From a virus, in the IMG/VR virus record IMGVR_UViG_3300048598_000516, positions 161 to 64,160 of that record: a DNA stretch of 64,000 nt, one strand, 5' to 3'. Of this stretch, positions 21,296-23,061 are shown piece by piece. A program made the translations under genes and the position numbers. How positions within the stretch are numbered: position 1 is the first letter of the stretch; the number at the start of each line of letters is the position of its first letter. The notes beneath the pieces are model-generated. The model had not been told where the DNA came from. It saw nothing but the letters and a program-made list of their open reading frames with translations, and searched no databases.

Positions 21296-22873
21296 ATGCA
21301 CACCCATCGCGGCATCAAATATCGGATCTATCCGACGGCGGAACAGGAGAAGCAACTCTCCTCGTACTTCGCCGGGCTGCGCTTCGTCCGCAACGAGGTT
21401 CTTCGCGTCGTCAGCAAGAACAAGGCTGATGTCGAGGCAGAGGCGGCAAGGATAACCGCAGGATCTCCTACGCACGCTGCTTGGGAGCGTGCGGTCGCGG
21501 AATACGAGGCTTTCCCACCCAAAGATCAGTCCAACGCTCGCAAGGCAGCCAGTGCTGCCATGAAATCCGCGCTTCGAGACATGATGAAGGCGGCGAAGTT
21601 GAAGTACGACTCGACGTCGCTCCCGGCGCTCAAGGCCATCGCCGCGAAGGTATACGCTGACCATCCGTGGACGAAAGATGTACCATGTAACTATCGCGAT
21701 TCTTCTTTGGCTGATCTAGAAGGAGCGTTCAAGAAGTTCTTTAAGAATCCAATCCACTTTAAATGGCCGAGGCTCAAGAAGTTCGGAGAGGTCGACGCTG
21801 TTCGGACTGGATTTGGGAAGTTTTTGCCGTCACAGAAAGGTGGCGAGTATAAAAATGTTGCGATATACAAGCTGAACTCGAAGTACGCCGCCCTCCGCGC
21901 GCCGTCCTTCTCTGGCGACAACAAGATCAAGATCCGCACTCACCGCCCGATAGATGGCGATCCAAAGTTCTGCACCATATCACATGACGCTGGTAAGTGG
22001 TTCGTGAGTTTTCTGTGTCAGGTTGAGAAGCAGGAAGAGACCAAGGCGGAAAAATGGGTCGGCATCGACCGTGGTATCACTGTTGCGCTAGCCCTCTCTG
22101 ACGGTAAGCTGATTCAGAACGGCAAGGCGCACCGAGCTGAGCTTGAGAAAAAGCGCATCCGCGCCCAGAAGGCCGCATCGCGCACCAAGAAGGGTTCAAG
22201 GCGCAGCAAGATTATGGCGAAAAAGCTCGCCAGCGCTGCTGCCAAGGTGGCAAATCACCGTCTGCACATGAACCATGTATCAACATCGCGGATCACCTCG
22301 AAGTACAACGTTGTCGTTATCGAGGATCTATCGACAAAAAATATGACGAAGTCAGCCTCTGGTACGGTCGAAAAGCCCGGCAAGAATGTTAATGCAAAGT
22401 CAGGTCTGAATAAGTCCATTCTGAATATGGGCTGGTATCAGATGAAGACTATGTTGGAATACAAAGTTGGTATCGCGTTGATTGAGGTTGACCCCCGCCA
22501 TACTTCACAGAAGTGCTCGGCGTGCGGGACTACCAGCAAGACACACCGCAAGGATCAGGCGCACTTCCTGTGCGACGACTGCGGAAACGAGATGAACGCG
22601 GACCACAACGCCGCGATCAACATTCTTCACCGTGGCATGGCCACGGTGAAGGCGGGGGGCTGCTCTTCCGCCGCTGATTGGAAGGCTCGTAATGACGATG
22701 CCGACCGTATGAAGCGAGAAATCCGAAAGGAAACCGCCAGCGAGGACGCTGCGGCAAGCAAGTCAGAACCACGTTTCGAGCGTGACTACACCACTGAGAA
22801 GGCCTTGTTTTTCAGTAGGTTACGATCCGTCGGGTGTAGCCGTACTCGAAACGGGGTTCTGGCGAGACGATGA
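21296..22873 (+). CDS. tnpB: TnpB/Cas12f-like RNA-guided endonuclease (IS200/IS605 TnpB family), no TnpA
   Basis: KYRIYPT...LRFVRN (HTH_OrfB), VGIDRG (RuvC-I D), VIEDL (RuvC-II E), CSACG/CDDCG Zn finger, NADHNAAINI (RuvC-III D); start could be 21284. Confidence 0.93.
   Translation: MHTHRGIKYRIYPTAEQEKQLSSYFAGLRFVRNEVLRVVSKNKADVEAEAARITAGSPTHAAWERAVAEYEAFPPKDQSNARKAASAAMKSALRDMMKAAKLKYDSTSLPALKAIAAKVYADHPWTKDVPCNYRDSSLADLEGAFKKFFKNPIHFKWPRLKKFGEVDAVRTGFGKFLPSQKGGEYKNVAIYKLNSKYAALRAPSFSGDNKIKIRTHRPIDGDPKFCTISHDAGKWFVSFLCQVEKQEETKAEKWVGIDRGITVALALSDGKLIQNGKAHRAELEKKRIRAQKAASRTKKGSRRSKIMAKKLASAAAKVANHRLHMNHVSTSRITSKYNVVVIEDLSTKNMTKSASGTVEKPGKNVNAKSGLNKSILNMGWYQMKTMLEYKVGIALIEVDPRHTSQKCSACGTTSKTHRKDQAHFLCDDCGNEMNADHNAAINILHRGMATVKAGGCSSAADWKARNDDADRMKREIRKETASEDAAASKSEPRFERDYTTEKALFFSRLRSVGCSRTRNGVLARR
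22764..22792 (+). ncRNA. anti-repeat (omegaRNA/tracrRNA-like) complementary to the downstream repeats
   Basis: CAGAACCACGTTTCGAGCGTGACTACACC versus reverse complement of repeat CAGAACCCCGTTTCGAGTACGGCTACACC: 24/29 identical, 2 of the differences are G-U pairs. Confidence 0.75.
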
Positions 22874-22938
22874 CGCGGGCGAAGGCCGGCGACCAACGGG
22901 TGTAGCCATACTCGAAACGGGGGGGTTCTGGCGAGACG
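22831..22938 (+). CRISPR. CRISPR-like mini-array: repeat (39 nt) - spacer (27 nt) - repeat (42 nt)
   Basis: CGGGTGTAGCCGTACTCGAAACGGGGTTCTGGCGAGACG at 22831-22869 and a near-copy at 22897-22938 (one substitution, G-run 7 versus 4); spacer ATGACGCGGGCGAAGGCCGGCGACCAA. Confidence 0.72.
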
Positions 22939-23061
22939 CCGCGCACATGAGCTGGAGATGACTATGGCCTTGTGATCTGGGGATGTCCTATGCCATCCCC
23001 ATTGCCATTGTAGCAACACGTCGTCCACCTTCTCGGCAACACCAATTGCGAGGAGGCCGCC

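Follow-up and report, generated by a model that had tools for sequence, protein, structure and literature searches.

The DNA analyzed here, a stretch of 64,000 nt (the window), is nearly all of the 64,369-bp provirus IMGVR_UViG_3300048598_000516 (IMG/VR; CheckV completeness, 95%). On its plus strand lies a small cassette in which a TnpB nuclease gene, intact but without TnpA or visible insertion sequence (IS) ends, is followed by an anti-repeat and two direct repeats that bound a 27-nt spacer (Table 1). We consider it probable, at roughly 60%, that this is a domesticated and no longer mobile prophage TnpB with a minimal array for exchangeable guides, similar to type V-U and TranC systems. What appears to set it apart is a first repeat that remains linked in cis to the guide scaffold, which would place the locus at, or just before, the step at which the guide RNA is split in two. 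A first-pass annotation of the same DNA had presented the locus as an intermediate between TnpB and clustered regularly interspaced short palindromic repeat (CRISPR) systems. The array part of that proposal is now supported by a sibling phage, while the idea of such an intermediate is no longer new, since V-U groups, TranC and Cas12n have been described, the first systems of this kind in 2023-2025.

The strongest evidence for an array comes from that sibling. According to an index of sequencing runs, a bioreactor metagenome (X1) contains part of the stretch, and its contigs were compared with the window over 19500-24500. The X1 phage is about 98% identical to the window phage: a 163-nt contig within tnpB (21347-21509) has one difference, and contigs of about 180 to 200 nt over the phage genes at 23672-24398 have 2 to 6 differences each (about 97-99% identity). 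A 361-nt contig at 3x depth covers 22832-23189; it was rebuilt from its listed differences (355 of 355 letters agree) and then realigned. Repeat 1 is identical at 37 of 37 positions, repeat 2 at 37 of 38 with an indel of GGG, and the downstream sequence at 247 of 252. Between the two repeats, only 7 of 29 aligned positions agree, which is the random level, and the X1 spacer is 26-27 nt long compared to 27 nt in the window. Because the spacer is shorter than the assembler's 31-nt word, reads must span the whole repeat-spacer-repeat unit. Beyond repeat 2 the flank is conserved; its junction with the repeat has a 2-nt insertion and one substitution in X1, and an A>C change breaks one pair of the trailer hairpin. 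The cassette thus occupies an identical position in the sibling phage, where its spacer is another one of near-equal length. The first-pass annotation had named identical spacers with drifting repeats in related phages as the pattern that would speak against it; X1 has the reverse, conserved repeats with an unrelated spacer, and at the sequence level this favors an array over a chance duplication.

Judged from their sequence, each repeat is a copy of the 3′ strand in the stem that closes the locus's own predicted guide scaffold, in agreement with the earlier suggestion that the 3′ stem of an omegaRNA had been duplicated. The anti-repeat, the 9-bp hairpin, the two repeats, the 27-nt spacer and the GC hairpin behind them all lie where the first-pass annotation had put them, and both hairpins fold as it described. 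The region 22618-22890 folds at -126 kcal/mol compared to -96.6 kcal/mol for shuffled sequence (z -5.75; 0/200 shuffles as good). In the predicted structure, a 12-bp hairpin is followed by three or four more stem-loops, then by a long anti-repeat:repeat 1 stem enclosing the 9-bp hairpin, with 6-8 unpaired bases between this terminal stem and the spacer. Between anti-repeat and repeat 1, pairing extends over 29 nt, of which 83% is Watson-Crick and a larger share is paired once G-U is counted; with repeat 2 it extends over at least 24 nt. The two duplexes are equally stable, at -42.8 and -42.6 kcal/mol compared to -18 to -19 ± 3.5 for shuffled repeats, which bears out the earlier claim that the anti-repeat can pair with either. 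The unit of anti-repeat, hairpin and repeat 1 scores -49.4 kcal/mol compared to -31.9 for shuffles (z -5.4; 0/200 as good), and as its two arms are linked by a 40-nt loop, this first unit is unsplit in the DNA; only repeat 2 would have to pair in trans or once processed. When the region is folded as a whole, the minimum-energy structure has repeat 2 as the partner of the anti-repeat. The single G>A substitution in repeat 2 turns a U.G pair with the anti-repeat into U-A, so that pairing is kept. The repeats start 66 nt apart, and their 24-nt core occurs twice in the window (0.00 expected). Alone, they are unstructured and not self-palindromic (fold z about -0.3 to -0.4), as expected for repeats that depend on tracrRNA (trans-activating CRISPR RNA).

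A perfect 12-bp palindrome with a 3-nt loop (CTTCACCGTGGC ATG GCCACGGTGAAG) lies at 22625-22651, inside the open reading frame (ORF) directly after the RuvC-III codons; the folding model makes it probably the first scaffold stem, or a processing site. No Rfam family matches the region. As a DNA pattern, the repeat core has no match in species genomes or IMG/VR. Its single match in a JGI metagenome (L086) lies in an unrelated coding region and was taken as chance.

The nuclease itself is well supported. Its RuvC residues are D262 (GID, 22067-69), E347 (IED, 22322-24) and D440 (NAD, 22601-03), and its zinc finger (22514-22582) has cysteines C411, C414, C430 and C433; the D-E-D triad and all four cysteines are invariant in an alignment of 20 sequences (A1). 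Three Pfam families are matched above their gathering scores (HTH_OrfB_IS605, 33.1 bits; OrfB_IS605, 54.9 bits; Cas12f1-like_TNB, 72 bits), and NCBIfam guided_TnpB is matched at 230 bits against a cut-off of 100. The 525-aa TnpB with catalytic triad and zinc finger that had been read from the translation is thus intact. The AlphaFold2 model (mean pLDDT [predicted local distance difference test], 68) is closest by Foldseek to ISDra2 TnpB (8H1J; E 3.4e-18; template modeling score by target, 0.68), followed by ISFba1 TnpB (8IAZ) and then Cas12f. Relatives have about 400 aa, and alignment A1 shows an insertion of about 54 aa in the REC domain and a smaller one in WED; enlargement of the protein is a trend in transitions from TnpB to Cas12 (PMC10691335).

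The last 70 or so residues (from about nt 22655) have no counterpart in the aligned homologues, and residues 458-529 are modeled at a pLDDT of 33-54. The codons of this tail (22655-22873) overlap the predicted scaffold and the anti-repeat: the ORF reads through the scaffold, and its TGA stop (22871-22873) falls at the very start of the spacer. If the X1 spacer is put in its place, this frame would continue for about 29 more codons through spacer and repeat 2. The end of the tail is not conserved, and its length would therefore depend on the spacer. The cassette has no signs of mobility. The 64-kb provirus has no Y1 TnpA, tnpB is present in one copy, and the 95 nt upstream of the ORF have no significant left-end hairpin (DNA fold z -1.1) but do carry a dyad of the phage type; the lack of TnpA and of a recognizable left IS end had both been noticed in the first pass.

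The closest proteins in the databases searched are proteobacterial TnpBs of 394-450 aa with 30-47% identity, and nothing exceeds 47%. Across 79 homologous TnpB loci, a 660-nt stretch that includes the 3′ end of the gene and continues beyond it contained no comparable direct repeat; the best score was 15, compared to 23 for the first block alone at this locus. The two closest homologues (P0003 and P0010; 41-47% identity; L003:1501-2685 and L113:2501-3442 in Logan assemblies) lack an array and have a short scaffold, ending about 130 nt past the RuvC-III codons; the window scaffold is about 110 nt longer. Searches of the 3′ region against 83 homologue loci (blastn, nhmmer) gave no significant similarity. 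Both of these homologues lie among runs of small phage-like genes, and this branch of TnpB may be largely phage-borne. Their conserved 3′ scaffold of about 130 nt ends in GATGTTAAT.

Among solved structures, the best sequence match is RdCas12n (PDB 9J09; 107 bits; 1.4e-29), confined to residues 225-446. Membership in Cas12n was considered and rejected on sequence comparison, since the match covers the RuvC/TNB half only and ordinary TnpBs of the clade (about 400 aa) score alike to RdCas12n, at 92 and 122 bits. That 9J09 ranks first reflects the divergence of the N-terminal half, which leaves 63 bits to ISDra2 TnpB compared to 129-192 for clade relatives; unnamed TnpBs of 400 aa reach 237 bits to the window protein. 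LaTranC matches at 26-27 bits only. With this and an identity of at most 47% to any other protein, the protein would be an independent lineage, and by its sequence we regard it as an independently remodeled TnpB and not as Cas12n.

We infer from this arrangement how the locus would be expressed, processed and used. The cassette would be transcribed together with the surrounding plus-strand genes. The last 245 nt or so of the transcript, up to the end of repeat 1 and over the dispensable-looking 3′ tail of the ORF, would fold into a scaffold ending in the anti-repeat:repeat 1 duplex, and the next 27 nt would act as the guide, making the first unit a natural single-guide RNA similar to an omegaRNA. 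Repeat 2, as a second copy of the 3′ strand of the duplex, would bound the spacer and turn it into an exchangeable cassette; since it pairs equally well with the anti-repeat, a second guide could be made from the trailer. The nuclease, with RuvC site and zinc finger kept, would cut DNA matching the guide beside a transposon- or protospacer-adjacent motif (TAM or PAM), with rival phages or other mobile elements in the lysogen as likely targets. More tentatively, and with low probability, the locus might represent a pre-split stage in the birth of a CRISPR system. Here the omegaRNA would still be intact and cis-linked with only its last 39 nt or so duplicated, a change sufficient in itself to make the guide a cassette exchanged between siblings without Cas1-Cas2 (e.g., through recombination between repeats or by a host integrase in trans). 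Such guides would be aimed at close relatives, and the 14-nt self-match described below would mark the allele that escapes, in a gene that is targeted in rival phages.

Several observations weigh against a domesticated TnpB with exchangeable guides. With two repeats around a single spacer, the array falls short of the three repeats needed by CRISPR finders, and the 64-kb provirus encodes no Cas1 and no spacer acquisition machinery. Neither IMG/VR nor 185,579 species genomes contain a match to the full length of the window spacer, or any match to the X1 spacer, and no RNA run among the indexed sequencing runs matches the locus. The variable spacer is seen in one relative from one metagenome, on a lone 361-nt contig covered at 3x depth. 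As that contig begins four letters before the repeat, its first repeat could be either the one that follows the scaffold or an inner repeat of a longer array. Low pLDDT in the C-terminal tail is also partly expected, because the alignment has no homologues there.

The main rival, which we nevertheless hold to be unlikely, is an ordinary TnpB-only element of the IS200/IS605 type residing in a phage, whose omegaRNA would stop at either repeat 1 or repeat 2, making the second copy an inert local duplication or the relic of an earlier right end; the difference in X1 would come from an unrelated indel or recombination event. Such an element would explain why the protein passes every family test as a standard TnpB and why its GC content, lying below the phage level, points to acquisition; TnpB genes are also common in phages (576 phage records match at <60% identity), and two repeats and a spacer without a target in the searches are what it would show. 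A clean swap of only 27 nt, with its length kept between flanks at 98% identity, is however not the product of drift or IS movement. The duplication is present in 0/79 homologous loci, the sole substitution between repeat 1 and repeat 2 keeps pairing with the anti-repeat, and TnpA, a left-end hairpin and a second copy are all missing from the provirus. An improbable alternative is a homing or retention device, in which repeat 2 and the phage flank (22939 onward) would guide the cutting of cassette-free siblings so that repair copies the cassette in, with repeat 1 and its spacer secondary. TnpB is established to promote retention of IS200/IS605 elements by cutting the empty site (PMC13565253), the cassette occupies the same place in two sibling phages, and repeat 2 pairs as well as repeat 1. 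The 2-nt insertion and the substitution in X1 would nevertheless lie within the seed of this guide; the searches gave no relative free of the cassette from which the empty site could be read, and the exchanged spacer would be left unexplained.

The two remaining alternatives are less probable again. One is self-regulation, which we rate as very improbable, in which a partial match between the spacer and the phage's own DNA at 28769 would let the complex bind but not cut a phage gene, as with TldR or Cas12m-type repressors. The match runs from the repeat-proximal end of the spacer, at 14/14 and then 16/17 positions, antisense to a minus-strand gene of the phrog_7247 family (28312-29868; 518 aa; E 3e-38). 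It is suggestive at the sequence level, given that only about 0.4% of control 27-mers have a match of this length anchored at their first two positions, but 2-3% have a 14-nt match anywhere in the window, and the anchoring was noticed post hoc. Past position 17, spacer and site are unrelated, at the protein level too, and homologues of the matched gene are <40% identical, so that they provide no allele comparable with the spacer. The RuvC site is intact, unlike those of known repressor derivatives, and the differing X1 spacer has no match of at least 14 nt in the window phage. The site is preceded by AAGAGA, which is no evidence for a PAM. Lowest of all we place an RNA or DNA element unrelated to TnpB, consisting of one inverted and two direct copies, such as an attenuator for the downstream genes or a host repeat resembling repetitive extragenic palindromic (REP) sequences or miniature inverted-repeat transposable elements (MITEs). 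An anti-repeat that pairs with either repeat, a minimum-energy fold that picks repeat 2, as in alternative-structure switches, and downstream genes on the same strand would all suit an attenuator, although no terminator-type T run follows the array in a promoter and terminator scan. Against such an element, the repeat is not self-palindromic (z -0.4) and has no further copy in the 64-kb window, and three public collections gave one chance-like match in a coding region. Either version also conflicts with the position of the repeats, contiguous with a scaffold that starts just after the RuvC-III codons, where the guide RNAs of TnpB and Cas12n lie.

A domesticated TnpB with a minimal array would have close parallels. 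TnpB is thought to have given rise to type V effectors many times, as the 3′ part of its omegaRNA was duplicated and the guide RNA split (PMC10691335; Jin et al., Cell 2025, as represented in papers citing it). Forty V-U groups combine TnpB-like proteins with downstream arrays and no adaptation genes, and the arrays have been proposed to arise by serial duplication of omegaRNA segments (Altae-Tran et al., PMC10691335). The intermediate stage has been formalized as TranC (Jin et al., Cell 2025, through PMC13565253 and bioRxiv 10.64898/2026.03.27.714800), and, in these citing accounts, the split into tracrRNA and CRISPR RNA (crRNA) is its defining event. As in TranC and the V-U groups, the locus has a TnpB-sized or slightly enlarged nuclease with RuvC intact, an array directly 3′ of the gene at the omegaRNA position with the anti-repeat upstream of it, no Cas1, Cas2 or Cas4, and repeats of similar length (36-39 nt compared to a reported 32-38 bp). 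It is also phage-borne, as is CauTranC9 with its 38-bp repeats in these citing accounts. It differs from them in having two repeats and one spacer where those arrays have 3-20 repeats, and in a protein that stands apart from LaTranC and every other database entry. Unlike TranC, its first repeat is covalently joined to the scaffold through a hairpin, so that the guide RNA of the first unit would not be split into tracrRNA and crRNA.

Cas12n (type V-N, formerly V-U4/C2c9) averages 544 aa, close to the 525 aa found here, and has a disordered, dispensable C-terminal tail whose codons hold the tracrRNA (PMC12216341), which resembles the low-confidence tail overlapping the scaffold in the provirus. 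In guide RNAs of Cas12n and Cas12f, multiple stem-loops precede a last anti-repeat:repeat stem, with a short leader that is unpaired (bioRxiv 10.64898/2026.03.27.714800), and the predicted guide RNA has the same multi-stem-loop organization, with few unpaired bases before the guide. Nevertheless, similarity to Cas12n is restricted to the RuvC/TNB half and no stronger than for ordinary TnpBs of the clade, and the array here is minimal. The PAM of Cas12n is A-rich and 5′ (AAN). With ISDra2 TnpB (IS200/IS605), the nuclease shares domain order, catalytic residues and predicted fold, and the predicted scaffold likewise overlaps the 3′ end of the gene with the guide directly after it. In contrast to ISDra2, there is neither TnpA nor a recognizable end, the gene is single copy and remodeled in its N-terminal half, and the guide ends at a second repeat and, at one genomic site, is not the same in the two sibling phages. 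Finally, the Thermus Lalka phages have in Cas12r a functional type V system of their own that is used against other mobile elements (bioRxiv 10.64898/2026.04.20.719267). Cas12r too is a compact phage-encoded type V-like nuclease with its own array, no adaptation genes and spacers that differ among related phages, but its arrays are longer and have integrative elements as known targets, whereas the locus here lies in a temperate provirus.

The cassette is therefore a further independent case of the TnpB-derived mini-CRISPR systems already published and not a new kind of system. Its value would lie in its simplicity. Most described intermediates have RNAs that are already split and arrays of at least three repeats, whereas here a scaffold fused to the first repeat is accompanied by one extra repeat, a spacer that varies between phages about 98% identical, and no adaptation genes. 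If active, it would offer a small (about 1.75 kb) and tractable case for asking how few changes make a transposon guide exchangeable, and how spacers are replaced without Cas1-Cas2. With it, the growing set of phages that encode RNA-guided nucleases themselves would gain a temperate member, its host probably an alphaproteobacterium.

Table 1. Positions in the window of the cassette components, neighboring genes and the partial spacer match
Feature	Position	Strand	Remarks
DNA primase	16525-19182		Upstream of the cassette
Endonuclease-like gene	20707-21201		Upstream of the cassette; small genes also upstream
Upstream untranslated region of the nuclease gene	21204-21296	+	TGCC-N5-GGCA dyad at 21242-21254; without IS left-end hairpin
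tnpB-like gene, 525 aa	21297 (ATG)-22873	+	Alternative GTG start at 21284 gives 529 aa
Predicted guide-RNA scaffold (omegaRNA/tracrRNA-like)	22625-22869	+	From RNA fold
Anti-repeat	22764-22792	+	Within 3′ tail of the ORF; forms inverted repeats with both repeats
9-bp hairpin	22793-22816	+	In the loop of the anti-repeat:repeat 1 stem
Repeat 1, 39 nt	22831-22869	+	Joined in cis to the scaffold; 37/37 identical in X1
Spacer, 27 nt, 70% GC	22870-22896	+	Unrelated 26-27 nt in X1
Repeat 2, 42 nt	22897-22938	+	One G>A and an extra GGG relative to repeat 1; GGG absent in X1
Trailer	22939-23000	+	Possible second (flank) guide, then 8-bp GC hairpin (22979-23000, GGGGATG(G)/(C)CATCCCC)
80-aa gene	from 23062	+	Downstream of the cassette
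Neck/tail-completion-like gene and ParB-like nuclease		+	Downstream of the cassette
Partial spacer self-match	28769-28785	+	First 14 nt identical (28769-28782); 16/17 match

The cassette lies between the replication block and further plus-strand genes (Table 1). GC content falls from 0.65-0.70 in the surrounding phage to 0.45-0.60 across about 21200-23050, which suggests that the cassette was acquired from elsewhere; in the upstream region (21204-21296) it drops from 0.66 to 0.52-0.56. The host is probably an alphaproteobacterium, judging from homologues of the phrog_7247-family gene in Rhizobium, Brevundimonas and Caulobacter phages. Distant homologues of this gene also occur in Xanthomonas phages. 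Close relatives of the phage or the cassette were not found by megablast of 19000-25500 against 50,697 phage records, and no related locus was found with the TnpB protein in species genomes and IMG/VR or with two neighboring proteins in IMG/VR. Protein searches with the downstream 263-aa and 80-aa proteins returned the window's own proteins only. A second run that matches the stretch is a soil metagenome (X2).

Matches to the first 20 nt of the window spacer (1 in IMG/VR and 25 in genomes) were set aside as chance: they end at 20-23 of the 27 nt, their flanks are unrelated, and for a word of 70% GC such matches are expected. The IMG/VR match (L087:3984-4003; 20 nt, exact) lies in an NlpC/P60-type peptidase gene of a tail or gene transfer agent (GTA)-like cluster.

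The dyad TGCC-N5-GGCA occurs 20 times in the window compared to 1.03 expected from shuffles, and 0/100 shuffles reach 20. From its sequence and number it looks like the operator of a phage regulator, and its presence upstream of tnpB would place the acquired nuclease under phage control. Copies lie, for example, at 3681, 4086, 5627, 11782, 13938, 21242, 28900, 29871 and 58380; one is 43 nt 5′ of the tnpB start, and a copy with one mismatch follows the array at 23003.

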